Virus record (IMG/VR): IMGVR_UViG_3300050505_000421
Location: 1 to 26,578 of that record
Direction: 5' to 3' (one strand)
Source: a virus
Length of the DNA: 26,578 bases
Below the pieces are notes generated by a model. The model saw only the letters and a program-made list of their open reading frames with translations. It made no database searches and had not been told where the DNA came from. The translations under genes and the position numbers were made by a program. Shown here one piece after another: positions 7,497 to 21,382 of the stretch (positions are counted from its first letter, which is position 1; each line of letters begins with the position of its first letter).

Positions 7497-8135
7497 TTAT
7501 TTCCCTTTCGGCCACCCTTGGACAATGGCGGTTTGGATCGCGTCGAGGATACCGGCGATGATCCGATCGGCCGCCGCACTCCACGCCGCACTCGCCGCAC
7601 TCTCCGCACTCCACGCCGCACTCCTCGCCGCACTCGCCGCACTCTCCGCACTCCACGCCGCACTCCTCGCCGCGCTCCTCGCCGCACTCTCCGCCGCGGA
7701 CCATTCAGCAGGAGTAATAGTCTCCCCCGCAGCAGTGCGGTTACAAAGAGCGAGGACCGTCCTGCACACGGCAAGCACCGGTTCGTCGGTCGTGTGCGCC
7801 ATCGCTTCTTGAACGATGATACCGCGAACCACGAAATCCAGGCGGCGCCACTGCTCCGGGCTGAGCACATGCCAGCTCGCAGCGAGATCAGCGAACCGGA
7901 ACACAGTCTCCATCCAGTTCTCTTCACTCCCCGCGTCATCGATCCAAGGCGTCAGGTGCGCGAGCCACGCAGGCATGAGATCCGCGGGACAGTTCGAAGT
8001 CGAACTGCAACCAGGAACCAACGCGGCCAGAAGGCAAGCCGTTTCTCGGCCATCATCGTCCCGTCCGTTCCAACTGCCGCGTATCAAACGTCCCTCGTTC
8101 AGGAAGAGTTCAAGACGATCGCTGTAGACACTCAT
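7497..8135 (-). CDS. Hypothetical protein with Ser/Ala/Trp repeats; paralog of 1-584
   Basis: ATG 8135 after GAGGAG; MSVYSDRLELFLNEGRL... aligns with the 584 gene. Confidence 0.88.
   Translation of the reverse strand: MSVYSDRLELFLNEGRLIRGSWNGRDDDGRETACLLAALVPGCSSTSNCPADLMPAWLAHLTPWIDDAGSEENWMETVFRFADLAASWHVLSPEQWRRLDFVVRGIIVQEAMAHTTDEPVLAVCRTVLALCNRTAAGETITPAEWSAAESAARSAARSAAWSAESAASAARSAAWSAESAASAAWSAAADRIIAGILDAIQTAIVQGWPKGK
7571..7701. repeat. Imperfect 9/12-bp tandem repeats encoding SAARSAAWSAESAA
   Basis: Visible directly; same unit as 1-143. Confidence 0.9.
7864..7961. repeat. 98-bp exact direct repeat, copy 2
   Basis: Identical to 304-401. Confidence 0.95.
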
Positions 8136-8146
8136 GGTTGTCTCCT

Positions 8147-8479
8147 CTACTTTTTGAAGGGCGCTGCGATTGCAGCAGCCATCGCGAGTGCGTCGAACGC
8201 GGGCTTGCGCAGCGGGGCGGGAGGCGGCTTCGGCCCGTCCAAGCGATACACCGTGTCGCGCTTGAACGGCTTGATCTTTCCGTGCAGGTCTTCGTAGGCG
8301 AGGACGCGAGCACCACAGACCGTCGTCTCCTCGTCGAGGACGACCATCTTGTAAGCGGCGTGCGGCAGCGCCGACTCCCACCTGATCTTCCGGCAGTACT
8401 TGCCCGGCGGTTGGTCGCAGAGCGGGCAGGCGACTTCGAGCGCCTTGCGTGCGACAAGCTTGCGGCGTGCTTCACCCAT
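8147..8479 (-). CDS. Zinc-finger-like hypothetical protein (ALEVACPLCDQPPGKYC)
   Basis: ORF track; CPxC-x7-C...H; RBS AAGGAG. Confidence 0.8.
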   Translation of the reverse strand: MGEARRKLVARKALEVACPLCDQPPGKYCRKIRWESALPHAAYKMVVLDEETTVCGARVLAYEDLHGKIKPFKRDTVYRLDGPKPPPAPLRKPAFDALAMAAAIAAPFKK

Positions 8480-8505
8480 CTTGGTTCTCCTTGCTTCTTC
8501 GGAAG

Positions 8506-8727
8506 TTAGACTTCAACTGCGTCGATGATCGACGACCACTCTTCAAGACGCGCCGCTGTCTGTGCAGCGAACGTTCGCGTACGCAACCAGCGAACGCGGG
8601 TCCACCAACGCTCGGCTTCGGTCGCCGCGCCGAATGGATCTTCGGCTGCGTCCCAGGCTGCCCCTTGTGCCATCTCCTCGGCGAGCACCCAGAGATGCGC
8701 CCACTCCTTCACCACTTGCCATAGCAT
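8506..8727 (-). CDS. Trp-rich hypothetical protein
   Basis: ATG 8727 after AAAGGA. Confidence 0.65.
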   Translation of the reverse strand: MLWQVVKEWAHLWVLAEEMAQGAAWDAAEDPFGAATEAERWWTRVRWLRTRTFAAQTAARLEEWSSIIDAVEV

Positions 8728-8732
8728 GATGG

Positions 8733-9314
8733 TTATCCTTTGGGCTTCGCGGCGAACTCGGCGCGGGTCGTCAGGTCTTCCTCGTACAGTTCCGTGCATT
8801 TCGGACACCAGATGTGGTAGGGACCACCATCACAATCGTAGTCGTCCATCACGGTGCCGGTCTTCTGTTTGACCCACATCGGGATCTCGATCTCATCGCT
8901 ACCGCAATGCGGGCAGACGTACTCTTCGTCTGCAAGCACACTGGCTGCGATGTCCGCATTGACGGCATCGGCCCAAGTACGCAATGGATACACAGCCGAC
9001 CACCAACCGGTGGCCTGTTCGACCCAATAACCGTGCGCCTTGAGCACAGCGGCAAGTTGCTCCATCGCGTCGTACTGTTCGTACGAGAAGTTGCAGCGCA
9101 GCGCGAGATCCCCGCCATCGTGAACGAGGATGAGCAGGGCGCCGGTGCAACTGACATCCGCATGCCGTTCACGCCATTCCTCGGGCGTGTAGAACGCACT
9201 GCAACCACCGCCGGTCGGCTCGCGGCCCTCTTCTTTGCGGATGTGGTCAACGATCGCGTCGGCGATCTTCTTCGCCGTGCCGGTCAGGTGGCTTGTGTCG
9301 AAGTCGTTCTTCAT
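8733..9314 (-). CDS. Hypothetical protein (GGGC..FY.P.EW...HDGG domain) with C-terminal zinc ribbon
   Basis: ORF track; CPHCGS...WCPKC. Confidence 0.85.
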   Translation of the reverse strand: MKNDFDTSHLTGTAKKIADAIVDHIRKEEGREPTGGGCSAFYTPEEWRERHADVSCTGALLILVHDGGDLALRCNFSYEQYDAMEQLAAVLKAHGYWVEQATGWWSAVYPLRTWADAVNADIAASVLADEEYVCPHCGSDEIEIPMWVKQKTGTVMDDYDCDGGPYHIWCPKCTELYEEDLTTRAEFAAKPKG

Positions 9315-9508
9315 CGCTTCTTTCCCGAACGGTTGAGCACGGCTACGATCTCGTGCGCGAAGTCGTCCAGGTCCGCCGGCATCCCGATGACGTAAGGCGG
9401 GCCGTAGTTGATGACGCCTCCCTTGGAGACGCCGCTCAGGTAGGCGATCAGCACACCGTCGCGCTCGATGACGCGCCCTGCAGTCAGGGCGTAGCGAGGC
9501 TTCTTCAT
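9311..9508 (-). CDS. Hypothetical protein
   Basis: ORF track; RBS AAGGGA; ATGA coupling. Confidence 0.75.
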   Translation of the reverse strand: MKKPRYALTAGRVIERDGVLIAYLSGVSKGGVINYGPPYVIGMPADLDDFAHEIVAVLNRSGKKR

Positions 9509-9519
9509 CGGCTTGTCCC

Positions 9520-9954
9520 TTAGCGCAGCTTCTTCAGCGTGCTCAAGTTTTCAAGGGCCCAGGTGCGCAGGGCCGGGCCCTCCGCACCCGAAGAGTTGTG
9601 GCCGTCGCTCTTCCAGTACAGTTCGGCGAGGGTGGTGGGTAACGGGTGCAGCCTCTCCCACAAGTTGGGCGGTGGGTCACACGGCAACCCGTCGGCTCCG
9701 TAACTACCAGACAGGCCGAGCTTGTGTTCTCCGACACGTACCCGTCCCATCATGAAGTGCCCGAACTGCGTCATCCGTACGTAACGTACGAGGCAGCGCA
9801 ATTCACGGCGTTCGGCCGGTGGACGAAAGAAGGGCACGGTCGGATCCGTTGGCCAACCCTCGTTGCTCACGCGGTTGAACAAGATCAAAAAGGCACCGCC
9901 GGCAGTCTGCTCCCCATGGCGGTTGTAGCCGCCGTACTTCGTGTTGAGGAACAC
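9520..9954 (-). CDS. Hypothetical protein
   Basis: ORF track; GTG after GAGG. Confidence 0.8.
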   Translation of the reverse strand: MFLNTKYGGYNRHGEQTAGGAFLILFNRVSNEGWPTDPTVPFFRPPAERRELRCLVRYVRMTQFGHFMMGRVRVGEHKLGLSGSYGADGLPCDPPPNLWERLHPLPTTLAELYWKSDGHNSSGAEGPALRTWALENLSTLKKLR

Positions 9955-9957
9955 GCC

Positions 9958-10164
9958 TCACCCGCCCACGGCGCGCAGTACGGCCGAGCGCAGCGTCTCC
10001 GCCTTGAACAGGAAGTCGTCACCGGTGCGCGGATCCGTGAGCATCACGGACCAACCGGCTTCGGTCGATCCGATGGTGACCTGCCAGGACTCGGCGAGGT
10101 AGAGAAGCCACTCGTCCGTGGTGGCGTGCGCCCTCGGGCTCTCGTAACCGTAGACCTTGTTCAC
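9958..10164 (-). CDS. Hypothetical protein
   Basis: GTG 10164 after GGGGAGG, coupled to the upstream stop. Confidence 0.75.
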   Translation of the reverse strand: MNKVYGYESPRAHATTDEWLLYLAESWQVTIGSTEAGWSVMLTDPRTGDDFLFKAETLRSAVLRAVGG

Positions 10165-10421
10165 GCTGTCCTCCCCGGCCGTCCGGCCGCTGTGTAGATC
10201 GATCCGTTCCCGTCGAGGAACAGAACCCCGACCTCTTCGAACAACTGTGGCGCCTTGGCGTACTGGCGCGCGAAGTGAATCACCGAACCAGAGCTCGGGC
10301 CAACGGCCAGCACCCGGCCTCGCTTGTCTCCGAGGCGGAGGGTGAAGTGGCCTGTGAGCACGTGCCTTGGCGGCTGCTCCATCGTGAAGCGGCAGGCAGC
10401 AATCGAAAACTCGAAGTGCAT
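10161..10421 (-). CDS. Hypothetical protein
   Basis: ATG 10421 after the boundary motif. Confidence 0.75.
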   Translation of the reverse strand: MHFEFSIAACRFTMEQPPRHVLTGHFTLRLGDKRGRVLAVGPSSGSVIHFARQYAKAPQLFEEVGVLFLDGNGSIYTAAGRPGRTA

Positions 10422-10433
10422 TGGGCTCTTCTT

Positions 10434-10446
10434 CCTTGTGCTTGGA
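10434..10446 (-). promoter_or_regulatory. Gene-boundary motif TCCAAGCACAAGG
   Basis: 2 nt downstream of the tRNA-Leu CCA. Confidence 0.8.
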
Positions 10447-10448
10447 TT

Positions 10449-10539
10449 TGGTACCGGGGGAGGGAGTCGAACCCTCACAGGCCTGCAAGGGCCTGGCGAT
10501 GTTTGAGATCGCTGTGTCTTCCAGTTCCACCACCCCGGC
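10449..10539 (-). tRNA. tRNA-Leu(CAA), long variable arm, encoded CCA
   Basis: Acceptor GCCGGGG/CCCCGGT; D arm GGTGGAACTGGAAGACAC; anticodon arm GCGAT-CTCAAAC-ATCGC; variable stem CAGGCC/GGCCTG; T arm GAGGG-TTCGACT-CCCTC; ACCA end. Confidence 0.95.
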
Positions 10540-10551
10540 GTGGGTCTCGTC

Positions 10552-10626
10552 TTCTCTAAGTGCCGGCGTCCTGCTTCCCAGGATGAGGAGCAGGACGCGA
10601 GCCTAGAACAGGCGAGAAAATCGGCA
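10552..10626 (-). ncRNA. Unknown structured RNA element, copy 1 (three-way junction plus pseudoknot)
   Basis: Covaries with the copy at 14655-14728 (see findings). Confidence 0.7.
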
Positions 10627-10691
10627 GGCGGGTTCTAACTTCCCGTAGCAGTTTACCGCTTCGTGTCCATTCCTCCTAGATTCTTCGAGGG

Positions 10692-10859
10692 CTACTTGAG
10701 CACCTTCTCGAGCTCGGCTTCGAAGTCCCGCTCCCAAAGGGTGGAGCCATCGGGCCGACGCAGTGCGAAGGGACCGCCGAAGATGCGGACCTCCGGTGCC
10801 GGCTTGTACCCAAGTTCCATCAGCCATTCCATCAGCGTGTGGATGTTCACCTTGCCCAC
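10692..10859 (-). CDS. Hypothetical protein (55 aa, MGKVNIHTLMEWLMELGY...)
   Basis: Manually translated; GTG after AAGGAATAGG; below the ORF-track length cutoff. Confidence 0.75.
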   Translation of the reverse strand: MGKVNIHTLMEWLMELGYKPAPEVRIFGGPFALRRPDGSTLWERDFEAELEKVLK

Positions 10860-10863
10860 GCGC

Positions 10864-11115
10864 CTATTCCTTCAGCGCGGCGAGCAGCGCCAGCTTCTCC
10901 GCGCGGTACGGGGAGGCGAAGCCCTTCCGGCCCGTCTCGTCCTCGTAGCGGCGGATGCGGCTGAGCACGACGTGGAACGCGCCGAACCAAGCGGCCTTGG
11001 TCGCTTCCCACACCTTGCGCTCGTGGAGCGCGATGGCCTCGGCGTTCTTCCGGTTCTGCGGCAGCGTGGCGCGGGTGACGCCGGCCTGCTGCAAGGCGTA
11101 CGCGAGCGTGGTCAT
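10864..11115 (-). CDS. Hypothetical protein
   Basis: ORF track; RBS AAGGAG; strong GC3 bias. Confidence 0.85.
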   Translation of the reverse strand: MTTLAYALQQAGVTRATLPQNRKNAEAIALHERKVWEATKAAWFGAFHVVLSRIRRYEDETGRKGFASPYRAEKLALLAALKE

Positions 11116-11126
11116 GGTGTCGAACT

Positions 11127-11139
11127 CCTTCTGTTTGGA
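11127..11139 (-). promoter_or_regulatory. Gene-boundary motif variant TCCAAACAGAAGG
   Basis: Intergenic, 11 nt upstream of an ATG. Confidence 0.6.
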
Positions 11140-11157
11140 GGTTGGAAGGGTTGAAGA

Positions 11158-11367
11158 TCACGGTTTGTAGGGGCGTTCTCCGCAGTTCTCGCAACGCAAC
11201 TCTTTGTACCAGTTGACATAACCGCAGTGGAGTTGACCGCAACGCCACACCAAGCCGACGCTTTCAGCGGCGCGTTCGATTGCAGGATACTCGTCGTCCG
11301 ATGCGGCTTGGATCAGCGCGCAGTAGACTCGGTTCGCTGTCCAACGCGGCTTGCTCCTCTTTTGCAT
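11158..11367 (-). CDS. Small zinc-ribbon protein (C-x4-CG.VN...CENCG, RanBP2/NZF-like spacing)
   Basis: ATG 11367 after GAGGAG; WRCGQLHCGYVNW...CENCG. Confidence 0.75.
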   Translation of the reverse strand: MQKRSKPRWTANRVYCALIQAASDDEYPAIERAAESVGLVWRCGQLHCGYVNWYKELRCENCGERPYKP

Positions 11368-11371
11368 GTGG

Positions 11372-11650
11372 CTACTCCTCGTCCTTGCAGGATTCGTCAT
11401 CGCAGTCCGCAACTTCGACGTAGGTCCGCAGGTGCGTCGGCGATGCGTTCTCGATCTCGAGCGTGTAGAGGTCGGGCCCGCCGGCGACCGACGCCTTGGC
11501 GCCGCTCTCTTCGTCGTACTCGTAGTCGGCGAGGTGCTCTGCCTCCGCCTTGGCGGCAGCGCGCGCTACTCTCCGGTCGGCGAAGTAGTAGTTGGAGTCC
11601 GGCAGGTAGCCGCCTTCCAACCCCACTAGGACGTGACAGTGCTTCGGCAT
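11372..11650 (-). CDS. Acidic hypothetical protein
   Basis: ATG 11650 after GGGAGG. Confidence 0.8.
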   Translation of the reverse strand: MPKHCHVLVGLEGGYLPDSNYYFADRRVARAAAKAEAEHLADYEYDEESGAKASVAGGPDLYTLEIENASPTHLRTYVEVADCDDESCKDEE

Positions 11651-11853
11651 CACGACCTCCCGCGACAAGAGCAATCCTCGTACACATTGGAATCGTGGCC
11701 AGACTTCAAGATCAAGTCGAAGAATGGTACCCCTGTGAAGCGGCGAATGCGGCCCTTCGTGTCGTAGTGACCAAGGCTCCGATGCGCGTCATCGATTGCG
11801 TGCCAATGCTCTTCACGCTTCTTCCAATCCGGCTTGGTCTCTGGTGGATTCAT
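11650..11853 (-). CDS. Hypothetical protein
   Basis: ORF track; coupled at both ends. Confidence 0.7.
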   Translation of the reverse strand: MNPPETKPDWKKREEHWHAIDDAHRSLGHYDTKGRIRRFTGVPFFDLILKSGHDSNVYEDCSCRGRS

Positions 11854-12347
11854 TTGCGACTCCGCTTCACTTCGTAGGTTCCGTCGTCACGAAGCACGCA
11901 GTTCACGGCTTCGGCGATCGCATCGGCTGTGGCTGCGTCGGGGTAGCCGACCAAGTCGGGGTTCCGCTTTGCGATGTGTGCGTGGCCGCAGTTCTCACAT
12001 ACGAAAGCCTTGGCAACGCGGTGACCTGTTTGGTCGCGCACGTCTACATCTTGCACGTCCTTCCAAGCGGTCGATGGCGATCCGCAGTTGTTACAAGCCG
12101 CCTGCTCTTCGAACTCAGGTCCGCGGTTGTCGATCGTGTAGTACGAGCCGAACGATACAGCCGATTGTGCCATCTCATCGTAGGCCGCAGGCGAATCGTA
12201 GGCGATGCCTGGTCCGAAACCGATCGCGGCTGCGTACAGGTCTTCGAAGTGCCAGGTCTTCTTGTGTGCCGTGACACGGCCGGCGTAGTCGCCGCGATCA
12301 CGGTAGAAGATCTCGATCACAGCGTCACCGATGTAGCGTCGGGCCAT
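11850..12347 (-). CDS. Hypothetical protein with internal zinc ribbon
   Basis: ORF track; CNNC...CENC; RBS AGGAG. Confidence 0.85.
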   Translation of the reverse strand: MARRYIGDAVIEIFYRDRGDYAGRVTAHKKTWHFEDLYAAAIGFGPGIAYDSPAAYDEMAQSAVSFGSYYTIDNRGPEFEEQAACNNCGSPSTAWKDVQDVDVRDQTGHRVAKAFVCENCGHAHIAKRNPDLVGYPDAATADAIAEAVNCVLRDDGTYEVKRSRK

Positions 12348-12357
12348 TGGCTTTCTC

Positions 12358-12828
12358 CTACTCCGTCAGTGCGTGCGTGTCGATCCCATCCGGGATTCGA
12401 TCGTGTCGTGCCGCGAACACGCTGATGCGGTGCGACCGCTTGATCAGGCGGATGCGGTCCGCAATCGACAGGCTGCACCACGCTTCGGTTGCTTCCTCGT
12501 ACTCGAGTTCCGAGTAGCGATCGTCGTCGAGGACCGGATAGTCGGCAAGGCGGGCCTCTGCATCAAGGCCCGCCTTCTCCGCGGCAGAGCCCGGGCGAAC
12601 GATGATGATCTCAAACCACCCGCAAGCCCAGTGACCGAAGCGGTGGAGCTCGTGATCTTCGGCGTGCTCTTCGAGCAGGGCGCGCAGCGCCTCGAAGTTC
12701 GCACGGTCGAGGATTCCCGAATCGCGGTTCAGCCCGCAGGGAGCGACCAGCCAGTCCTGGCGATCGTCATCAAGGTGTGCGCCGCGCGGGTCGAACGGGG
12801 TTGGCGCGAACTTGCTGTAGCATTGCAT
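12358..12828 (-). CDS. Conserved phage hypothetical protein (RDS..L...NF / HWACGW.E / L.DYPVLD type)
   Basis: ATG 12828 after AGGAG; motif recalled from phage hypotheticals. Confidence 0.85.
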   Translation of the reverse strand: MQCYSKFAPTPFDPRGAHLDDDRQDWLVAPCGLNRDSGILDRANFEALRALLEEHAEDHELHRFGHWACGWFEIIIVRPGSAAEKAGLDAEARLADYPVLDDDRYSELEYEEATEAWCSLSIADRIRLIKRSHRISVFAARHDRIPDGIDTHALTE

Positions 12829-12838
12829 GTGGAGGCTC

Positions 12839-13141
12839 CTACCAGATGTCGGTTTCGATACACACGAACTCGTCCGGTTGCGCACCGATCCAAGCGCGGC
12901 GGATGCAATCGGCCAGGTCGTGGCTATTCCAGCGCATGAGACCGTACGTGCCTCCGTACTTCCCGTGAAAGGACAGGGTGTGGCAACCTGCGCCGGTGTT
13001 ATCGCGCCAGAAGCCGATGTGACAGTGCGCTTCGATGAGTTCGGTCAGGAGCTTGAGTGTGTCTTCCTTCCCGGCCGTTTCTTCTTTGGCACGCTCTTCG
13101 TCTAGGGCGCGCTCGCACCACTGTTTGTATGTTGGCATCAC
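12839..13141 (-). CDS. Hypothetical protein
   Basis: ORF track; RBS AGGAG. Confidence 0.8.
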   Translation of the reverse strand: MMPTYKQWCERALDEERAKEETAGKEDTLKLLTELIEAHCHIGFWRDNTGAGCHTLSFHGKYGGTYGLMRWNSHDLADCIRRAWIGAQPDEFVCIETDIW

Positions 13142-13238
13142 GGCTTCTCCTGTTGAGGCGCCTTGAAGGTAGCCAAACGGAACTTGACCAGCCCGCCTTT
13201 GCGCAGTAGACGGTGAGCTTCTTTGCCACGCGCCCTCC

Positions 13239-13541
13239 CTAATCCGCCGAGCACTTGACCACGACGTTCGCGGTCATGGCCGGGCCGTACTCCACGCACA
13301 TCGGCGAGTCGGACGGACACCACCACGTGTTGGTCGGCACGTCGACGAGGACGCAGTCCCCGTTCCCGGTCGGCACGCAGGCGTTCGGCACGGGCGCCGG
13401 CGGCGGCACCGGGTTGAGCGGCGCGTCCGGCAGCGGGACCTCGATCACGACCGGCCCGACGCAGGCGTCCGGCGAGTAGTCGCAGTTCGAGGCAGAGAGA
13501 GCCAGCGCAAAGAGCGAGGCTGCGAAGAGAAAGCGCTTCAT
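13239..13541 (-). CDS. Putative secreted/lipoprotein, Cys- and Pro-rich
   Basis: MKRFLFAASLFALALSASNC: basic N-terminus, hydrophobic core, then Cys; ATG 13541 after the boundary motif. Confidence 0.8.
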   Translation of the reverse strand: MKRFLFAASLFALALSASNCDYSPDACVGPVVIEVPLPDAPLNPVPPPAPVPNACVPTGNGDCVLVDVPTNTWWCPSDSPMCVEYGPAMTANVVVKCSAD

Positions 13542-13554
13542 CGTGTTCCTTCTT

Positions 13555-13567
13555 CCTTGTGTTTGGT
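13555..13567 (-). promoter_or_regulatory. Gene-boundary motif ACCAAACACAAGG
   Basis: 2 nt after the upstream stop. Confidence 0.8.
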
Positions 13568-13569
13568 CG

Positions 13570-13908
13570 TTAAGGAAAGCGTGTCTGTGTTCGTAGAAGG
13601 TCAAGGGCGCACTCCGTCCAACTACTCTGCCACGCCTTCCAAGCCTTTGCGGGTTCCAGTCCGTCTGCGTAGACATCCAAGGCGTGCTGCGACATCCAAA
13701 CCGCGCGGCCCTCCAAGAGCAGTTCTGTGACTGCGATCCTCTGCGCGTGCCGGAGCCCCGCGTCACTTGGGTTCGCGAGGCAAGCGAGCAACCGTGCGTC
13801 ACGGCCCCGCTCGAGGACGTCTTCGGTGCGCTCCTCGATCTCATCTAGATCGATCGCGTTCACGCAGTCCTGGCGGCCGGCGGCGCGCCAAACGTCGTAG
13901 AGGCTCAT
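13570..13908 (-). CDS. Hypothetical protein
   Basis: ATG 13908 after AGGAG, ATGA-coupled. Confidence 0.75.
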   Translation of the reverse strand: MSLYDVWRAAGRQDCVNAIDLDEIEERTEDVLERGRDARLLACLANPSDAGLRHAQRIAVTELLLEGRAVWMSQHALDVYADGLEPAKAWKAWQSSWTECALDLLRTQTRFP

Positions 13909-14114
13909 CGCAGGTTCTCCTGGCCGAGATCGCCATCGTCGTCGCACGAGCAGCACGCAGCGCCGATTGGGCTCTTGGCAGATCGCAGGCATTCCTCGTG
14001 GTCTGCGGCGATCATCAATGCGGCCCCCGGGTTTCCGCATCGGGCGCATGGCAACCGCACGAACCGGTCGTCACTCGGCAAGCCACACCAATCGCAGTCT
14101 CGGGTCGATGGCAT
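13905..14114 (-). CDS. Small Cys-rich hypothetical protein
   Basis: ORF track; CDWC, CARC, CCSC. Confidence 0.7.
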   Translation of the reverse strand: MPSTRDCDWCGLPSDDRFVRLPCARCGNPGAALMIAADHEECLRSAKSPIGAACCSCDDDGDLGQENLR

Positions 14115-14123
14115 TTGGTCCCC

Positions 14124-14252
14124 CTACCAGAACTTGACGATGAAATGTACGATCACGAACAGCCCTCCGCCAAACAGGCTCAGACCAACCACGGCAGTCA
14201 CGACAGCCCACGCAACGTCGCTCGCGGTGGCATGCGTACGGAGTCTTCGCAT
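14124..14252 (-). CDS. Small single-TM membrane protein (42 aa, ends HFIVKFW)
   Basis: Manually translated: MRRLRTHATASDVAWAVVTAVVGLSLFGGGLFVIVHFIVKFW. Confidence 0.75.
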   Translation of the reverse strand: MRRLRTHATASDVAWAVVTAVVGLSLFGGGLFVIVHFIVKFW

Positions 14253-14398
14253 TCGCTTTCTCTCTTGGTGAAACGGCCCGCCTCGGCATGCGCGCCCGGC
14301 TTGATTTTACCACCGTCCCGTTAGGCTTCATCGGAGCAAATAGCGTCCTCCACCCAACCAAACGGTCCAAGCTTTCCGGAGATCAACCCGGCAAGTCC

Positions 14399-14623
14399 CT
14401 AGCAGAGGAAGTCGCCCCACATCCGGTACCAATCCGGCTCTTGCGTGGTTCCGTCCTCCTGCGTGAAATCGTAGATGGCGCGCATGCGCCGGATCCACTC
14501 CGTCTGTGCGTCGGTCATCTTGTTGTAGTGGGCCTGTCCGCGTTCGATGACGCGGCGCACACCGGGCGGGTACTCCAGTTGATCCGGCAGCGCGGACCAG
14601 TAATTCGGCTTCGTACGCGGCAT
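14399..14623 (-). CDS. Hypothetical protein
   Basis: ORF track; follows the boundary motif. Confidence 0.8.
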   Translation of the reverse strand: MPRTKPNYWSALPDQLEYPPGVRRVIERGQAHYNKMTDAQTEWIRRMRAIYDFTQEDGTTQEPDWYRMWGDFLC

Positions 14624-14633
14624 TTCTTTTCTC

Positions 14634-14646
14634 CCTTGTGCTTGGT
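14634..14646 (-). promoter_or_regulatory. Gene-boundary motif ACCAAGCACAAGG
   Basis: Consensus copy, 10 nt upstream of an ATG. Confidence 0.8.
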
Positions 14647-14654
14647 CCTCACGT

Positions 14655-14728
14655 CCTCTAGTACCGGTGTCCTACCCGCCAGGACGGCAGGCAGGACACG
14701 GGCCTAGAACAGGCGAGGGGTATCGGTA
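14655..14728 (-). ncRNA. Unknown structured RNA element, copy 2
   Basis: Covaries with the copy at 10552-10626. Confidence 0.7.
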
Positions 14729-14735
14729 GGCAGGA

Positions 14736-15269
14736 CTACAACGAAACGACGGCCCCGTACGAGCCGATGGTACCGACCAGGATTCCTACCAGCTTGCCGG
14801 ACGAATCCAGTACGCCGGCGCCTAGAGCTCCGGGCGGCACTCGGAACGTCGTGCGCAGGACACGGACCAGGACGGGGCCCGCCGCCAGAAACTCCGAGTA
14901 GCGAGAGCATGAAGCCAAAACGGAGTCGATGACTCGACCCCTCAGTGTAGAGGCCACGTCCGGTCCCCAGTACCCGGCTCGAACCGCGGCACCCTTCGAA
15001 GTCGCGGTAGCAAGCCTGACCTCTTCCTTCAGCGGGACCTCGAGATCCAGCCAGGCCACGCCGGTCGGCGACATCGCTTCGACCCAGGCGACGATCGGCT
15101 CTGCGTCCGCTGCCACGAAGACGTAGACCTTCCCATCCTCGGCAGACGAAACGAGCTCTGCCGAAGTGGCCACGGTCCAGCGATCGAGTACCACGCCCGA
15201 CCCGGCAGCACCGGACCCGGCAGAGATGACGCGGACCGCGAGTGCAGCTGCGGTGAAGGCAACGTGCAT
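14736..15269 (-). CDS. Trypsin-like peptidase fold protein lacking the catalytic triad
   Basis: GSGVVL...VATSAELV, GVAWLDL and PPGALGAGVLDSSGKLVGI match the S1/HtrA-like scaffold, with His/Asp/Ser replaced. Confidence 0.7.
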   Translation of the reverse strand: MHVAFTAAALAVRVISAGSGAAGSGVVLDRWTVATSAELVSSAEDGKVYVFVAADAEPIVAWVEAMSPTGVAWLDLEVPLKEEVRLATATSKGAAVRAGYWGPDVASTLRGRVIDSVLASCSRYSEFLAAGPVLVRVLRTTFRVPPGALGAGVLDSSGKLVGILVGTIGSYGAVVSL

Positions 15270-15278
15270 GTTCTTTCT

Positions 15279-15291
15279 CCCTGTGGTTGGT
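15279..15291 (-). promoter_or_regulatory. Gene-boundary motif variant ACCAACCACAGGG
   Basis: 9 nt upstream of an ATG. Confidence 0.7.
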
Positions 15292-15406
15292 TGAAATGCT
15301 GGACGATTCCTCCGGTTGCGGTTCCGTGATTTGGCGGGGCTTGTTCTAGCGCTTTACCCCAAGCGCCACGTCGTCTCATCTCGACGCGCAGGAAACGGAG
15401 TTGAAA

Positions 15407-15511
15407 CTACAGCAACGCGATCCGCGTGAACAGCGCGAGCAACGGCATGACTGCCAGCGACAGGAACGCGGCAGCGCGAGCGTAACCGTGCGTGATCTCG
15501 AAAGCGAGCAT
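15407..15511 (-). CDS. Small hydrophobic peptide (34 aa)
   Basis: Manually translated MLAFEITHGYARAAAFLSLAVMPLLALFTRIALL; RBS GGAAGGA. Confidence 0.55.
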   Translation of the reverse strand: MLAFEITHGYARAAAFLSLAVMPLLALFTRIALL

Positions 15512-15749
15512 GGTGGCTTCCTTCCGGGGGGCACCCCCCAGTGTCAAGGCGTTGTCGAGACTAGGCGAGTAGCAGTGAACGATCGGCTTTGCGGCTTAGG
15601 CACGCGTGAAGATCAAAACGCGGCTAGCCCGAAACGCGGCAGAAAACGCACGTGCGCCAGGCGCGCATCATGTGTGCGTTTCCACAGGCATTTCAGGCGC
15701 GACTACACGAAGCGATTTTTCCCGTTACATGTGAGGCGCTTTCAGCGCC

Positions 15750-16511
15750 TCAACCCATCAACTTGCGAAGCGCGTTGCTACCGCGCTGGCTACGCGTCGC
15801 GCCCTTCCCTCCCCTGCTACGCCGTGGCATCTCCCTGTCCGTCGCTGCGTTGTAGACAGGGCCCGGCAGTGTCGAGATGCTCACCGCTGTCCGCGTTGAC
15901 GTGGCGCACACGTTGTCCGCTACCGCGTTAGACTGCGATTCCGACGCGTGAGTGATCCCTACCGTGCCAGCGCACGCACCGCACGCTGGGCCATCGTACT
16001 CGTGACACTCGCACCCACAGTGAGAACCGCACGCTTCGCCGCAACAGCCCGCGTCAAGGTCACCCCACGGGCAAGGCGCTGGGTAGGTCACCCGTGCCGT
16101 TGCGCTGGCGCGAACCCCGGAGTCAACCGCCTTGCGAGGCGCGATCGGGGTGACCACGCCGTCCTTGGCGCGGTAGACGCGCCACCCCGCCGTGGTCTGT
16201 TGCCGGGCAGGGTCCGTCCGCCGCAGGGACTTCCGCATTGCGTTACGGGCGCACACGTAGGCGCGCCACGCGTCGGGATGGGTCCTACCACAGTGGGTGC
16301 ATTCCCTCAGTGCTTCGCTACGCGACGCCAGCGTAGCGCGCGCCCGCGCGTCGTCCGTCAATCCAGCGCGCTCGCCAGCCGCACGGGCCGCAATGTCGCG
16401 CCGCAACGCGAGGGTCAGTTGCGCGTGCTTGTCCCGCTCCCAGCCGTCGCTTGCGCGACACGGGAGGGAAAGGCAAACGGCGCACGTGGTATCGGGTGTA
16501 GTCATGATCAT
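15750..16511 (-). CDS. Cys-rich hypothetical protein
   Basis: ORF track trimmed to ATG 16511; CAVC, CTHC, CCGEACGSHCGCEC, CGAC. Start and coding status less certain. Confidence 0.6.
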   Translation of the reverse strand: MIMTTPDTTCAVCLSLPCRASDGWERDKHAQLTLALRRDIAARAAGERAGLTDDARARATLASRSEALRECTHCGRTHPDAWRAYVCARNAMRKSLRRTDPARQQTTAGWRVYRAKDGVVTPIAPRKAVDSGVRASATARVTYPAPCPWGDLDAGCCGEACGSHCGCECHEYDGPACGACAGTVGITHASESQSNAVADNVCATSTRTAVSISTLPGPVYNAATDREMPRRSRGGKGATRSQRGSNALRKLMG

Positions 16512-16554
16512 GGTGGCGCTTTTGTTAGACCGGAGCGCGCCAATCCGGTTACTG

Positions 16555-16809
16555 CTACTCCGCCGACTGGAGCGACGGCACCGCACCGGACACCCCCACG
16601 GTGGGGGCGGGCGCGTCGGGCGAACCCCGCAGCGACGCCAGCGTCACGCCCCGCGCGTACGCCGTGCGCCCGCCGATGGCGCCGTTGATCTCCGGGAGAT
16701 TGCTGTCCAGCGTCCTCTTCGCCATCTCCAGCTTCTCGGCGAAGCGCTCCGCCACCGTCTTCTTGGGGGCGCTGGCCACCTTCGTCTCGCTCTTGCTCTT
16801 GCTCGCCAT
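16555..16809 (-). CDS. Small basic hypothetical protein
   Basis: ORF track; RBS GGAG; strong GC3 bias. Confidence 0.85.
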   Translation of the reverse strand: MASKSKSETKVASAPKKTVAERFAEKLEMAKRTLDSNLPEINGAIGGRTAYARGVTLASLRGSPDAPAPTVGVSGAVPSLQSAE

Positions 16810-16838
16810 GATTCGTTCTCCGGTTTGGGGAACACTAC

Positions 16839-16851
16839 TCTTGTGCTTGGA
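16839..16851 (-). promoter_or_regulatory. Gene-boundary motif variant TCCAAGCACAAGA
   Basis: 29 nt upstream of an ATG that has its own separate RBS. Confidence 0.65.
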
Positions 16852-16921
16852 GCGAAATTGCTCAAGCTTCCCAAGGTCGTGAAACCCGATCCGCAGACGT
16901 GCCTAACAACCCACGTCAACG

Positions 16922-17006
16922 GGTCGCATTCCGCGACCGTCCCTGCCAGCCTCCCCGCGCATGCGCAGGGGAGCGGCCTAGGCGCGTACAGCGCACGCCT
17001 AGGCCG
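16922..17006. other. Cluster of consecutive hairpins (terminator, attenuator or ncRNA candidate)
   Basis: GGTCGC/GCGACC, CTCCCCGCGC/GCGCAGGGGAG and an 11-bp CGGCCTAGGCG/CGCCTAGGCCG stem. Confidence 0.6.
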
Positions 17007-17017
17007 ATGGTACCCGA

Positions 17018-17206
17018 CTACAGCGCGCGCCCCGACGTCTCCAGCCCGACCGCTTCCGCCAGCGCCTCCGCGTTGCTCGCACGGTCGAACCACGCCCGCC
17101 ACAAGCGCCGCGCCCGCTCTGCCGCGCGCGCCATGCCAGCCCGCTTGAGGTTCGCCGCGGTCCGCTGCCACATGTCCACCATCCGCCACATGTCACGCGT
17201 CGTCAT
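17018..17206 (-). CDS. Hypothetical protein, first gene of the left arm
   Basis: ATG 17206 after GGGAG. Confidence 0.75.
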   Translation of the reverse strand: MTTRDMWRMVDMWQRTAANLKRAGMARAAERARRLWRAWFDRASNAEALAEAVGLETSGRAL

Positions 17207-17250
17207 GGTCTGTGTCTCCCGTTTGGGTTGCCGTCCGATGCAGAAAGACA

Positions 17251-17267
17251 ATGCGAGCAACGTGCCA
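17251..17267 (-). promoter_or_regulatory. Sigma54 (-24/-12) promoter candidate for the left arm
   Basis: TGGCACGTTGCTCGCAT matches TGGCACG-N4-TTGCW with exact GG-N10-GC spacing, 44 nt upstream of the first ATG. Confidence 0.7.
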
Positions 17268-17346
17268 GCGATGCAAACCTAGTTATTCCTGCTACTTAGG
17301 TTCGCATGGGTTAGTCCAATGTCTGTACAGTTAGCGGTGTGGAGGG

Positions 17347-17355
17347 TGTGGATAA
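17347..17355 (-). promoter_or_regulatory. Perfect DnaA box (TTATCCACA)
   Basis: TGTGGATAA on the plus strand; single copy. Confidence 0.45.
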
Positions 17356-17725
17356 CCTAGCTAGGTAGCTGGAATGCCTAGACTAAAACTACCATACGTA
17401 GATACTGGACGGGGTGACCTAGGTTCAGTCAGAGCGTGGGGTTCTTACCCTGCTTTGAAGCGTTAGGTTTACAGGAAATGACTGCCAACCCCAACGATTT
17501 CCGCAACTTACACATGCGAGGGGTTTTCCCCCTAGCATTCTTGGTACGATTCTTTCCTGTGTGTTTAACTACCTGAAACTACTAGCCTAACACAGCTGTG
17601 GGGGTTTTACCCTACCTCGAGCGGTACGCTTCGTGCAATTTCCTCAGCGCGCCGCGTATGCACGCGCGAAGCCCGCGCGCAGTCGGACCCTACCCGCCCC
17701 GCACCGCACGGGGTACGCCCCGCAC

Positions 17726-17738
17726 CCCAAGCACAGGG
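17726..17738 (+). promoter_or_regulatory. Gene-boundary motif variant CCCAAGCACAGGG inside the control region
   Basis: No substantial ORF follows it. Confidence 0.55.
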
Positions 17739-17939
17739 AAAGTGTGTAGCAAGGACTAGACACGAACGATTCTCAGCGCTTACACGCGGAGGGATGCAGT
17801 GCGTTAGGGGGTTATGTCTAATTAGTTCGGGGATTTAGTTGATGGGGGGTGTAAAAGGGGTGGATTACCAACTGGAACGATCGTCGAGGTCCTATCCTGA
17901 GGCTCGATCAAATTCGGAAACGAACATGTGAGCCTCCCC

Positions 17940-17968
17940 TTGTCCAGGTCAAACATTGTGATTAGACT
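17940..17968 (+). promoter_or_regulatory. Sigma70-type promoter candidate for the right arm
   Basis: TTGTCC-17 bp-TAGACT, followed by GGAGGAG and ATG 17988. Confidence 0.6.
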
Positions 17969-17987
17969 CCGGCCTGGAGGAGTCCGC

Positions 17988-18857
17988 ATGTCCTACATGC
18001 ACATCGACAGCCTGTACAAGAACCAGACGATCCTGATGTTCCGCGAGTGCTTTGCACTGGAGAAGGTGCACGGGACGTCGGCACACGTCCGTTGGGCGGA
18101 CGGCCAGCTGCACTACAGCCCGGGCGGCGCGCCAATCGACAAGTTCCGCAAGGCATTCGATCACGAGGAACTCGAGGCAAAGTTCCGCGAACTCGGCTAC
18201 CCTACGGTCGTCGTCTATGGTGAGGCGTACGGGGGTTCCTGCCAAAGGATGATGGACACCTACGGGCCGACGCTGCGGTTCATCGCGTTCGAGGTGCTGG
18301 TGGGTGACCGCTGGCTCTCCGTGCCGGACATGGATCAGGTCGCGACGGGCCTGGGACTCGCGGTGGTGCCCTATCGGAGGGTGTCCACGAACTTGGAGGC
18401 GCTGGACTTCGAGCTTGACCGCCCGTCGGAGGTCGCTGTGCGGCGCGGCTGCGGTGAGGACCACCCGCGGGAGGGCGTGGTGCTGCGCCCCCTGATTGAA
18501 CTCAGAACGAACAACGATCAGCGCGTCATCGCGAAGCACAAAGGGGAGAAGTTCTCGGAGCGGGCAACCACGCCAAAGGTCGCGGATGCCGAAAAGCTCG
18601 CTGTACTGGCTGGCGCTGACGCGATCGCGCAGGAGTGGGTAACGCCAATGCGCCTCGAACACGTGCTGCAGAAGATCCCCGGCGCGAACATCGAGCACAC
18701 CGGGCAGGTCATCAAGGCGATGGTCGAAGACGTCTACCGCGAGGCGAAGAACGAGATCGTGGAGTCCAAGGAGGCCAGCGCCGCGATCGGGCGCAGGACG
18801 GCGATCCTGTTCAAGGAAAGGTTGAAGGCCGTCCTGAGAGAGCGGTCCACCTCCTGA
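17988..18857 (+). CDS. rnl2: ATP-dependent RNA ligase, T4 Rnl2 family
   Basis: Motifs I EKVHGT, III YGEAYG, IIIa FIAFEV, IV EGVVLRP and V IAKHK..F.E, plus an Rnl2-type C-domain (WVTPMRLEHVLQKI...MVEDVYRE); RBS GGAGGAG. Confidence 0.92.
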   Translation: MSYMHIDSLYKNQTILMFRECFALEKVHGTSAHVRWADGQLHYSPGGAPIDKFRKAFDHEELEAKFRELGYPTVVVYGEAYGGSCQRMMDTYGPTLRFIAFEVLVGDRWLSVPDMDQVATGLGLAVVPYRRVSTNLEALDFELDRPSEVAVRRGCGEDHPREGVVLRPLIELRTNNDQRVIAKHKGEKFSERATTPKVADAEKLAVLAGADAIAQEWVTPMRLEHVLQKIPGANIEHTGQVIKAMVEDVYREAKNEIVESKEASAAIGRRTAILFKERLKAVLRERSTS

Positions 18858-19118
18858 TCTACCGGAAGGGCGACGGGTTCTACGGGGGAGCTGCTGCCGC
18901 GCCCATTCAGCACCTGCCACGGTTCCTCCGTGACGACTTCCTGATCTTGGCGATGCGGCTACTGGCGAGAGCCCCCGTGCGTACGCACGGCCGTCGGCGG
19001 TTCCTTCGCTGAGGTCATCGGCAAGAGGGCTTGCGATCCCGGCGTGTTGAGAAGGCGCGGCCCTGGTTCGTGCTTGCCCCCCCCCCCTCAAATTCCGCAT
19101 CCCTCGTTCGATCACATC

Positions 19119-19146
19119 TTGACTCACCACGAATACGAGTTAGGGT
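19119..19146 (+). promoter_or_regulatory. Sigma70-type promoter candidate
   Basis: TTGACT-16 bp-TAGGGT upstream of the 19229 gene. Confidence 0.45.
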
Positions 19147-19228
19147 GGTTGCTGGGAGCGGTGCTGTAGAACAACTTGGTCAGGGTGGGTCGCACGCGAA
19201 ACCGTTCGACCAACAGGGAGGTTTGAAG

Positions 19229-19849: not shown

Positions 19850-19862
19850 AGGTTGCGTCTCA

Positions 19863-19875
19863 ACCAAGCACAAGG
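19863..19875 (+). promoter_or_regulatory. Gene-boundary motif ACCAAGCACAAGG
   Basis: Consensus copy, 6 nt upstream of an ATG. Confidence 0.8.
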
Positions 19876-19881
19876 AGGAAA

Positions 19882-20151
19882 ATGCTGAGTGTCTTCAAGT
19901 ACCCCGTGAACCTTGTAGACGAGTTCTCGCTGGAACTGCCCATCGGGGCCAGGATCCTTCACGTCGAAAGCCAGGCAGGAACCAACTGCCTTTGGGCCCT
20001 CGTCGACCCCAAAGCCCCGAAGGAGCTCCGGCACTTCCGCCTGGCCGGGACAGGGCACCCGATCGACGACTACGCGATCGGGGACCACATCGCCACCTGG
20101 CAGGACGGGCCTTACGTCTGGCACCTCTTCGAGGCGGGGGGAACGCGATGA
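19882..20151 (+). CDS. Conserved phage hypothetical protein (KYP...LWALVD...GTGH...VWHLFE; DUF7352-like)
   Basis: Motif pattern recalled; family number unverified. Confidence 0.85.
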   Translation: MLSVFKYPVNLVDEFSLELPIGARILHVESQAGTNCLWALVDPKAPKELRHFRLAGTGHPIDDYAIGDHIATWQDGPYVWHLFEAGGTR

Positions 20152-20758: not shown

Positions 20759-20770
20759 TACACACTTCTT

Positions 20771-20783: not shown

Positions 20784-20793
20784 GAATACGTAG

Positions 20794-21381: not shown

Positions 21382-21382
21382 G

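Follow-up and report, generated by a model that had tools for sequence, protein, structure and literature searches.

Two copies of a structured element lie in intergenic regions on the coding (minus) strand, within a block of small genes of no known function, in an uncultured soil phage represented by a 137-kb record (84% complete), of which we analyzed a stretch of 26,578 nucleotides (hereafter, the window). The element is real and unclassified, is represented by two sequences, and has a putative function: the reading that we tentatively prefer on the strength of predicted folds is that it is an extra-long gene-punctuation hairpin that forms or protects mRNA 3' ends. The two copies and the surrounding features are the following:

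10541 to 10633, minus strand: copy 1, the complete homologous unit of 93 nt (alignment; covariance model score 110.6 bits; rod MFE -39.2 kcal/mol)
14642 to 14735, minus strand: copy 2, the complete homologous unit of 94 nt (alignment and ORF map; covariance model score 110.2 bits; rod MFE -51.3 kcal/mol)
10449 to 10539, minus strand: tRNA-Leu(CAA), separated by 5 nt from the base of the rod in copy 1
10431 to 10445, minus strand: boundary (ribosome-site) motif downstream of the tRNA-Leu, ahead of an ATG at 10421
14631 to 14645, minus strand: boundary (ribosome-site) motif downstream of copy 2, ahead of an ATG at 14623
14736 to 15269, minus strand: gene upstream of copy 2, encoding a 177-aa trypsin-like peptidase (Pfam PF13365, E 1.1e-07)
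10692 to 10859, minus strand: 55-aa ORF of no known family upstream of copy 1

The aligned units are identical in 84% of the columns, and each is located between co-oriented genes, with a stop codon upstream and the tRNA-Leu, or the motif and an ATG, downstream. The unit of copy 2 begins 1 nt past the TAG of the peptidase gene, for which relatives at 90% and 55% identity were found; upstream of copy 1, the 55-aa ORF stops 58 nt before the unit. The copies are direct repeats 4.1 kb apart, with about ten small genes between them, none of which matches a functionally annotated family and one of which has a weak match to a PHROG of unknown function. Among the 25 neighbouring ORFs, the only matches are those of the peptidase, an RNA ligase, a weak Pfam match to MSSP (PF03940), and PHROG families of unknown function. 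The original prediction placed the element on the minus strand at 10552-10626 and 14655-14728, where both copies were indeed found, but as a unit of about 75 nt, which is shorter than the homologous unit. Within those earlier bounds, copy 1 ends 12 nt before the 5' end of the tRNA-Leu, and copy 2 lies just before the boundary motif, with a gap of 9 nt, as had been described. That the resemblance exceeds chance is borne out by the covariance model, which scores the two copies at 110.6 and 110.2 bits and everything else in the window at no more than 23 bits, by the presence of only two copies in the 137-kb record, and by the simulation of stem pairing described below.

None of the 4227 Rfam families, known ribozymes and riboswitches included, matched the element in the region 10400-14900 even at E <= 10, apart from mir-1910, whose match is that of any generic hairpin (17.7 bits, where the threshold is 70); the only other match in this region is the tRNA-Leu, and at the gathering thresholds the whole window yields a single tRNA match, tRNA-Gln at 4883-4953. 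No homologs were detected in the viral, metagenome or genome collections searched, and no further copies in these collections or in the phage record. The original prediction called the RNA unrecognised, and no Rfam family accounts for it; two copies in one orphan genome are insufficient for the claim of a new RNA class, and no result points to a ribozyme, a riboswitch or a put-like antiterminator.

Two folds have to be compared, namely, a long interrupted hairpin (the rod) and the earlier fold, a three-way junction in which P1 encloses a 4-bp hairpin and the 15-bp stem. The parts of the element are located as follows:

10566 to 10598, minus strand: upper stem of copy 1, with one C.A and 14 standard pairs among its 15 rungs and a UCC loop
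14667 to 14699, minus strand: copy 2 upper stem, 15 standard pairs (three of them G.U) with a UCC loop
10601 to 10616, minus strand: copy 1 invariant 16-mer, the lower-stem 5' arm in the rod, containing the small hairpin of the earlier fold (exact match search, 2 matches)
14702 to 14717, minus strand: copy 2 invariant 16-mer (exact match search)
10545 to 10565, minus strand: copy 1 lower-stem 3' arm, including the P1 3' arm (10561-10565) and the tail
14647 to 14666, minus strand: copy 2 lower-stem 3' arm, including the P1 3' arm (14662-14666) and the tail
10622 to 10626, minus strand: copy 1 P1 5' arm (UGCCG) of the earlier fold, unpaired in the rod
14724 to 14728, minus strand: copy 2 P1 5' arm (UACCG) of the earlier fold

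On re-reading both copies, the stem sequences, the UCC loop and the 16-nt invariant block reported earlier proved correct, and so did the counts of compensatory changes (one double change in P1 and three in the long stem that keep Watson-Crick pairing). The upper-stem bases differ between the copies at 11 of 30 positions, 6/15 in one arm and 5/15 in the other, next to a block that is identical at 16/16; the 16-mer and the UCCUGG loop region are invariant. Standard pairs fill all 15 rungs in copy 2 and 14 of the 15 in copy 1: apart from the three double changes that preserve Watson-Crick pairing, there is a fourth (C.A to U.G) and there are three one-sided changes, and no pair is broken. When the 11 observed differences were placed randomly over the 30 upper-stem bases, a stem with 15 standard pairs was obtained in 0 of 200,000 uniform trials and at a frequency of 3.4e-4 under a transition-biased scheme (P <= 3.4e-4). 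This comparison of the two copies shows that the 15-bp upper stem is under selection for pairing; the compensating changes uphold the view of an element that is structured, lies in cis and is on the strand that is transcribed. The covariation that the original prediction termed strong comes from no more than two sequences of a single genome.

For both copies, alone as well as in a 146-nt context, the MFE and centroid structures are one long interrupted hairpin of about 30 bp, with about 31 predicted pairs per copy, 1x1 loops and one or two bulges, in which the partner of the 16-mer is the 3' tail; the folding z-scores are -3.9 for copy 1 and -5.3 for copy 2. After realignment of the tail for the consensus fold (67/94 identical columns, compared to 64/94 before), RNAalifold gives -43.3 kcal/mol for the rod versus -37.25 for the earlier fold, with 28 consensus pairs, none of them broken, four double changes and six one-sided ones. 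In the full-length ensemble, the probabilities do not exceed 0.0003 for the P1 pairs and 0.0014 for the small hairpin, and the rod is favoured over the earlier fold by 4.5 kcal/mol in copy 1 and by 9.3 kcal/mol in copy 2. The interrupted rod is the predicted equilibrium fold of both full-length RNAs. The architecture of P1, small hairpin and pseudoknot that was originally proposed is not supported at full length, where both thermodynamics and the tail-corrected consensus favour the rod, and the covariation attributed to the pseudoknot (U-A vs C-G) belongs to an ordinary nested rod pair (columns 18-90). The earlier fold is the MFE structure only as long as the tail is untranscribed: both copies adopt it in the prediction if the RNA is truncated immediately past the P1 3' arm, and it would hence form first during transcription.

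This last result is one of the arguments for a different reading, namely, that the element is a three-way-junction RNA, possibly with a linker-tail pseudoknot, that acts as a specific cis-regulator, which might be a switch that works co-transcriptionally, an antiterminator that modifies RNA polymerase, a sensor of a ligand or protein, or a self-cleaver. The same fold is returned exactly by RNAalifold on a plain MAFFT alignment (-36.7 kcal/mol, with four double-changed pairs, one of them in P1); the 13-nt 5' flank that bears the P1 arm is identical at 11/13 positions although the rod leaves it unpaired; and the 16-mer is common to both folds, as switching sequences are. Nevertheless, we consider this reading unlikely given the full-length probabilities and energies quoted above and the lack of a match to any ribozyme, riboswitch or other Rfam family at E <= 10. 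Moreover, the covariation is uninformative on the small hairpin because its sequence never varies, the single double change in P1 has an estimated chance probability of about 0.07-0.1, and the 3' change in P1 is also accommodated by the rod, as G-C to G-U. A scheme that combines the two predicted folds, in which the element would be a bistable co-transcriptional phage RNA switch of an undescribed kind, seems very doubtful. The three-way junction (P1, small hairpin and long stem) would form first, the 16-20-nt tail would then invade it to yield the rod, and a protein, a ligand or a terminating ribosome would set the balance of the folds and hence decide if cleavage or termination of the transcript occurs ahead of the tRNA-Leu and of the next cistron.

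Alternatively, the element could be a palindrome that functions at the DNA level, with the RNA hairpin as a by-product. It might mark a module boundary or a hot spot of recombination, a role that PeSLs have in T4-type phages, it might be a miniature palindromic repeat of the selfish kind, or it might signal through a hairpin in single-stranded DNA. We place this possibility below the three-way junction but above the switch. It would suit the direct repeats that surround genes without functional annotation, palindrome symmetry can persist through DNA processes, and the plus strand of copy 1 folds at least as well as its minus strand (-43.1 vs -38.7 kcal/mol), contrary to the original claim that the wobble pairs work on the transcribed strand only. 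That claim does hold for copy 2, where the three upper-stem G.U pairs become A.C mismatches on the opposite strand (z-score -5.3 vs -2.0), which speaks against a DNA-level role. So do the limited stretch of identity, which at 16 nt makes a poor substrate for homologous recombination, the absence of sigma-70-like sites in 8000-26578, the absence of further copies, and the contigs examined, in which no joint between the copies was found, the sole joint listed (10901 to 14504) being outside the elements. The least probable of the readings considered here is an RNA operator, in which a sequence-specific RNA-binding protein of the phage or the host, a translational repressor or processing factor, would recognise the 16-mer and the UCC loop. 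The invariance of the 16-mer and the UCCUGG region amid arms that differ at 11/30 positions, and the proximity of copy 2 (in the earlier bounds) to the next gene, whose ribosome-site leader is 9 nt further on, are compatible with such a role; however, a whole tRNA gene separates copy 1 from the next leader, the element does not sequester the Shine-Dalgarno region in the predicted folds, and no candidate binding protein is found among the 25 neighbouring ORFs.

The rod is followed by CCCAC in copy 1 and by ACCAAGC in copy 2. The upper stem provides the G+C-rich hairpin of a canonical intrinsic terminator, but a run of U is absent and a consensus terminator scan lists neither copy. The original prediction took the lack of a U-tract to exclude a terminator; the observation stands but the inference is weak because the other junction hairpins of this phage have no U-tracts either. 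In the region 8000-26578, canonical terminators show no excess (11 vs 14.3 expected) and there are 0 sigma-70-like promoter sites. The five motif-pair hairpins of the phage (16-19 bp, -22.6 to -32.1 kcal/mol) are made from the ribosome-site repeat and are located after stop codons and before a ribosome-site leader, at least one of them where, according to rough ORF calls, plus-strand genes meet minus-strand tRNA genes. The element resembles these hairpins in being U-less, in its location at gene junctions and in its 16-mer, which scores weakly as a mirror copy of the motif found across the genome, matching at 10/15 positions in the same register in both copies (PWM rank among genome positions within the top 0.03% for copy 1 and 0.1% for copy 2; P ~0.05, a rough value after allowing for the positions scanned). 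It differs from them in the merely partial motif match of its arms, with a 3' arm that is not motif-like (only top 0.5-2.5%), in the 33-nt stem-loop at the tip, and in stability (-39 and -51 vs -23 to -32 kcal/mol); only 2 of the ~45 motif sites bear the element.

Several known phage elements invite comparison. The put antiterminator RNAs of phage HK022 are cis-acting, two-stem RNAs of ~70 nt, two per genome, located just downstream of two early promoters in divergent operons, with stems of similar size; the element shares the number of copies, but both occupy one putative operon, and its favoured fold consists of a single rod. In the excerpted description of Cluster K mycobacteriophages (PMC3203893), ESAS are imperfect inverted repeats immediately upstream of the start-associated ribosome-site repeat at about half of the SAS genes, with 17-bp repeats and 4-13-bp spacers; the left arm is nearer the consensus than the right, the departures do not support RNA pairing, and the authors favour DNA-binding sites. 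Copy 2, in the earlier bounds, precedes the motif by 9 nt and so is placed in a similar manner, and in the element, too, the left arm is the one nearer the consensus; between copy 1 and the motif there is the tRNA gene. The element differs from that description, which has shared 17-bp arms at many genes, in being confined to two sites, with arms that covary and compensatory changes that keep pairing. PeSL cassettes of T4-type phages, as excerpted (PMC2839356, PMC4122927), are numerous, conserved intergenic units of ~100 bp that extend from a stop codon to the next start and flank genes of no known function. Their stem-loop attenuates transcription, and they also have an AT-rich tract, a Shine-Dalgarno site and an early promoter of the sigma-70 consensus. 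The element is of similar size and placement, likewise adjoins genes of no known function, and has the stem-loop and the ribosome-site motif; the sigma-70 promoter, the AT-rich tract and the abundance are not found, so on this account it is not a PeSL.

The conserved sites for B. subtilis RNase III in phage SP82 are a system comparable to the element, alongside the RNase III processing signals in the early polycistronic mRNA of phage T7. In the excerpted account of RNase III (PMC3867540), the T7 early polycistronic precursor has five such signals, the idealised E. coli substrate is 22 bp, or two helical turns, and where the helix has bulges or internal loops, these direct cleavage to a single strand, by which stabilising 3' hairpins are left. 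As far as that account goes, the T7 signals are dispersed hairpins between cistrons, with a helix of more than 22 bp and small loops and bulges, and the element is similar, the co-oriented genes around it forming a putative operon of early-gene type; the about 31 predicted pairs per copy fall within the T7-type helix range (about 22 bp or more), and by analogy a processed hairpin might stabilise the upstream message here as well. In contrast to the T7 signals, with which it shares no sequence similarity, the element has only two copies and an invariant 16-nt block in one arm.

Under the preferred reading, that of a punctuation hairpin, the RNA would be made and would fold as a rod in the cell, creating and protecting an mRNA 3' end just before the next unit, that is, the tRNA-Leu or the next ribosome-site leader. 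The end might result from U-less termination or attenuation or, alternatively, from cleavage by a host double-strand-specific nuclease of the RNase III type; no RNase III gene is encoded in the phage record (84% complete), so that a host enzyme must be assumed. At copy 1, the end could also come from RNase P cutting at the tRNA 5' end, in which case the hairpin would stay behind to cap the upstream message at its 3' side. As to origin, the lower stem may have descended from a mirror-motif/motif hairpin of the phage, with the 33-nt stem-loop added at the tip. In favour of this reading are the location of both copies between a stop codon and the next unit, the predicted rod, the upper-stem pairing kept despite divergence, the length of the rod, above that of the idealised RNase III substrate, the U-less junction hairpins with the weak motif resemblance of the 16-mer, and the lack of an excess of canonical terminators or sigma-70 promoters. 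The invariant 16-nt block beside diverged arms is a poor fit for a purely structural hairpin and suggests that the sequence is specifically recognised or that a second fold exists; the small sample of two sequences from one genome, the true compensatory change in P1, with the earlier fold being the MFE before the tail is made, the equal folding of copy 1 on the opposite strand, the weak motif resemblance, and the 30-bp stem, unusually long for a terminator, also count against it.

If both competing folds matter, the element would be a new cis-acting RNA switch, which two sequences cannot establish; the relatives of the upstream peptidase offer a direct route to deciding this. The element is among the few sites in this genome where selection for RNA pairing is demonstrable from sequence alone, and would make it convenient to map the ends of transcripts in such phages. 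If the punctuation reading is correct, the element would clearly illustrate message punctuation in an orphan soil phage that does not use canonical terminators, and would suggest that a generic junction hairpin can grow much longer at selected sites, the leader of a phage tRNA among them.

Alignment of the two copies of the element delimits a homologous unit of approximately 93 nt that occurs twice in the window, on the minus strand, where both copies read as originally reported:

10541-10633, minus strand, copy 1 of the unit, bounds from the alignment
14642-14735, minus strand, copy 2 of the unit, bounds from the alignment, 84% column identity to copy 1

The copies share an identical 16-nt block that is absent elsewhere in the window even at 3 mismatches (2 matches, 0.27 expected). 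R1, the covariance model built from the two copies, scores copies 1 and 2 at 110.6 and 110.2 bits, respectively, and everything else in the window at no more than 23 bits with the filters off.

The window covers the opening 26.6 kb of an IMG/VR record of 137 kb (61% G+C; 84% complete according to CheckV). Its long ORFs include, as judged by eye, those for tail-sheath-like, DNA polymerase I-like and split ribonucleotide reductase-like proteins; the portal and tail sheath were confirmed through matches to GenBank phages. The likely genes between approximately positions 1 and 17,000 lie on the minus strand. Copy 2 starts 1 nt past the TAG of a gene for a 177-aa trypsin-like peptidase (PF13365, E 1.1e-07) and, within the bounds of the original prediction, ends 9 nt ahead of the phage's ribosome-site motif, beyond which lies the start codon (ATG) of a 74-aa gene. 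Copy 1 starts 58 nt past the stop codon of a 55-aa gene, and its folded rod (see below) ends 5 nt ahead of tRNA-Leu(CAA), after which come the same ribosome-site motif and an ATG. Among the 25 neighboring ORFs, the only named Pfam matches are the peptidase, an RNA ligase at 17928-18857 and a weak match to MSSP (PF03940); the other matches are to PHROG families of unknown function. The RNA ligase gene (plus strand; PF09414, E 1e-12; phrog_548, E 5e-28) opens the plus-strand block and is preceded by approximately 1.1 kb (16810-17927) that contains no convincing gene and a perfect 13-bp hairpin at 16974-17006, possibly a divergent control region. Consensus scans of positions 8000-26578 detected no sigma-70-like promoters and no excess of canonical terminators (11 vs 14.3 expected).

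Selection on pairing in the upper stem is solid even with two sequences. Between the copies, this 15-rung stem has changed at 11 of its 30 bases, and standard pairs nevertheless occupy all 15 rungs in copy 2 and 14 in copy 1. Four rungs are changed on both sides (C-G to U-A, U-A to C-G, C-G to G-C and C.A to U.G), and three on a single side, where a Watson-Crick pair is exchanged for a G.U pair or vice versa. When 11 random substitutions were introduced into the copy 1 stem, uniform changes never yielded 15 standard pairs (0 of 200,000 trials), and under a two-to-one transition bias the fraction of trials that did so was 3.4e-4. Neither the UCC loop nor the base of the stem varies, and divergence within the unit is greatest in the apical half of the stem. 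The upper stem is therefore treated as established. Three AGGAC sequences lie within copy 2 (14647-14672, minus strand), one in the 3' arm of the stem and two in the tail as GAGGAC-GU-GAGGAC; the matching places in copy 1 read AGGAC, AAGAC and GAGAC.

For the rest of the unit, the original prediction proposed a junction-like architecture, with a closing stem P1, a small invariant hairpin and a pseudoknot between the linker and the 3' tail. Folded alone, and also in 146-nt contexts, each copy instead yields a single interrupted rod of approximately 31 pairs, the 3' tail serving as pairing partner of the invariant 16-mer.

Predicted folding energies and ensemble probabilities for the two copies
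Rod: copy 1, -39.2 kcal/mol; copy 2, -51.3 kcal/mol
Best fold with P1 and the small hairpin enforced: copy 1, -34.7 kcal/mol; copy 2, -42.0 kcal/mol
P1 pairs, ensemble probability: copy 1, <= 0.0003; copy 2, <= 0.0003
Small hairpin, ensemble probability: copy 1, <= 0.0014; copy 2, <= 0.0014

The consensus fold depends on the alignment. With a plain MAFFT alignment, RNAalifold returns the originally proposed fold (-36.7), but the single gap in the tail is poorly placed in this alignment; once the gap is shifted, identical columns number 67 of 94 instead of 64, and the consensus becomes the rod at -43.3 vs -37.25 for the proposed fold. Of the 28 pairs in the rod consensus from the gap-shifted alignment, none is broken, 4 show double changes and 6 show one-sided changes. 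The covariation attributed to the pseudoknot (U-A vs C-G) turns out to be the outermost nested pair of the rod, and the small hairpin with its junction is disfavored by both the individual folds and the gap-shifted consensus. Two points still favor the originally proposed fold. The difference between UGCCG/CGGCA and UACCG/CGGUA in P1 is a true compensatory change, and in RNAs truncated directly behind the 3' arm of P1 this fold is the minimum free energy structure for both copies, so that it would form first during transcription. Thus, the rod is favored by these models as the equilibrium fold, and the junction fold is possible as a transient or alternative state.

The claim that the G-U wobbles work only on the transcribed strand holds for one of the copies. 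Copy 2, with three G.U pairs in its upper stem, has a z-score of -5.3 on the minus strand vs -2.0 on the plus strand, whereas for copy 1 the values are -3.9 and -4.0, respectively, with the plus strand slightly more stable. The case for a minus-strand RNA accordingly consists of gene orientation and copy 2.

The ribosome-site motif, CCAARCACAAGGAAGAAG, occurs 16 times in the window (1026-25187; 1.34 expected) and 52 times in the record at up to 3 mismatches to its 15-nt core, mostly 3-12 nt ahead of ATG or GTG and at times in inverted pairs. Five pairs of the motif with its mirror copy fold at -22.6 to -32.1 kcal/mol into stems of 16-19 bp without a U-tract, and at least one of these hairpins is located, by rough ORF calls, at the junction of plus-strand genes with minus-strand tRNA genes. 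Scanning of the elements with a weight matrix derived from 38 motif copies revealed a weak copy of the motif in the complement of the 16-mer. Its register is the same in copies 1 and 2, it matches at 10 of 15 positions, and its scores rank within the top 0.03% and 0.1% of positions genome-wide. The tail of the element is not motif-like. This likeness is a hint (P about 0.05), not a proof. The weak motif copy in the 16-mer suggests descent of the lower stem from the type of hairpin usual at this phage's junctions, with a 33-nt stem-loop added at the tip.

Rfam contains no family matching the element at gathering thresholds or at E <= 10, in agreement with its predicted absence from known families. 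Within the record, BLAST and R1 (filters off for the window, and on the whole record) recovered only the two copies and weak opposite-strand echoes; a third R1 match at 13224-13313 (14.1 bits, E 0.046) was rejected, as it spans the end of one ORF and the start of the next and has no similar stem. Pattern scans of viral, metagenome and genome contigs, with R1 applied to loci retrieved by them, identified no homologs. The exact 16-mer is present at 12 loci in viral contigs, none with the stem, and the element pattern was not found in metagenome contigs. The stem-loop pattern matched 31 loci in viral contigs and the core pattern one locus in genome contigs; across 33 sources, namely these 32 loci and one more (L018), R1 did not exceed 12.9 bits. 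The boundary (ribosome-site) motif gave 7 single-hit loci in viral contigs and at least 112 in metagenome contigs (34 of 64 parts scanned), none resembling a relative, and R1 found nothing in the 100 of these 112 metagenome loci that were searched with it. An 18-mer from the tRNA-Leu occurs at 23 viral loci, in no case with the element upstream.

The phage is an orphan. Searches with the two flanking proteins returned no relatives among viral contigs, a search there with a peptidase alignment returned none either, and the peptidase gave none in GenBank phages; its relatives in metagenomes show 90% identity (on a 1380-nt contig) and 55% identity (on contigs of up to 8946 nt). The best match of the portal is at 40% identity, in IMG/VR, with at most 33% among the matches listed for GenBank phages and all 251 records under 60%; the best match of the tail sheath is at 28%, and megablast of positions 9000-16000 against GenBank phages produced no match. 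The sequencing runs containing the stretch are rhizosphere metagenomes according to their records, and none of those listed is an RNA run; two of them may be the source. Seven runs have contigs that barely differ from the window; one run contig of 9601 nt carries 2 differences in 5101 nt, both outside the elements, and therefore provides no informative variation. The element is real, structured and unclassified, and was seen twice in one orphan phage. The prediction is partly confirmed: neither the architecture nor the new class is supported as originally stated. Two further observations come from elsewhere in the record: a 1039-aa ribonucleotide reductase-like ORF (G000:C1:48187-51306, plus strand) contains a putative intein-like insert, with a Cys-start block and an endonuclease-like middle recognized by eye, and a tRNA-like gene beside tRNA-Ile (G000:C1:101822-101892, minus strand), for which ARAGORN gives the anticodon as two bases, 'gt', could have an odd anticodon loop or be a false call.

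Several readings were dropped. Against a role as a tRNA leader, the element precedes only one of the record's five tRNA genes, and no tRNA accompanies copy 2. A -1 frameshift stimulator was rejected given that no slippery heptamer precedes either copy and that copy 1 lies 58 nt past a stop codon. In both copies, a UAG within the 16-mer (10603-10605 and 14704-14706, minus strand) terminates an extended open stretch in the -1 frame of the gene upstream; with no slippery site found, this is probably coincidental in DNA so rich in G+C. These open frames are overlapping Arg-rich ORFs of 74 and 68 aa that look like alternative-frame artefacts, and a coding role was dropped. An integron attC-like site lacks RYYYAAC/GTTRRRY cores (by eye). 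Between the 55-aa gene and copy 1 (10644-10668, minus strand), a strong Shine-Dalgarno-like AGGAGGA precedes a five-codon ORF (MDTKR), but at a spacing of only 1 nt, with nothing similar at copy 2. A T7-type RNA polymerase was not detected in the record, a result that says little since the same search was silent in every control genome.

A hairpin with a purely structural role would account for neither the invariance of the 16-mer nor the compensatory change in P1, and for this reason other interpretations are kept alive. A switch or junction RNA is unlikely; a repeat acting at the DNA level, of the PeSL or palindrome type, appears quite unlikely, and a protein operator very unlikely, each being kept in consideration by the same two features. 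By sequence, the element does not belong to the T7-type RNase III signals, PeSL or ESAS. HK022 put and the SP82 sites are additional comparisons for it. In location, the element is similar to the ESAS of Cluster K mycobacteriophages; in the passages of the ESAS report that deal with the arms, departures do not support RNA pairing and the authors favor DNA-binding sites (PMC3203893), whereas the arms of the element covary. The PeSL cassettes carry attenuating stem-loops (PMC2839356, PMC4122927). In its way of working, the element would be closest to the T7-type RNase III signals, alongside the PeSL stem-loops.

Our preferred reading, offered tentatively, places the element within the phage's hairpin punctuation as an extra-long member. 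The hairpin would make or shield an mRNA 3' end before the unit that follows. An RNase III-type route may be envisaged: according to the relevant portion of PMC3867540, small loops and bulges direct single-strand cuts that leave stabilizing 3' hairpins, five such signals are present in the T7 early precursor and the idealized substrate is 22 bp, a length that the rod exceeds; the rod has small loops and bulges of this kind. The enzyme would be supplied by the host, given that no RNase III is encoded in the record. The element lacks the U-tract of a canonical terminator; termination or attenuation without a U-tract would be equally possible because the other junction hairpins of the phage are likewise U-less. 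In the case of copy 1, RNase P cleavage at the 5' end of the tRNA would be enough to leave the upstream message capped at its 3' end by the hairpin.
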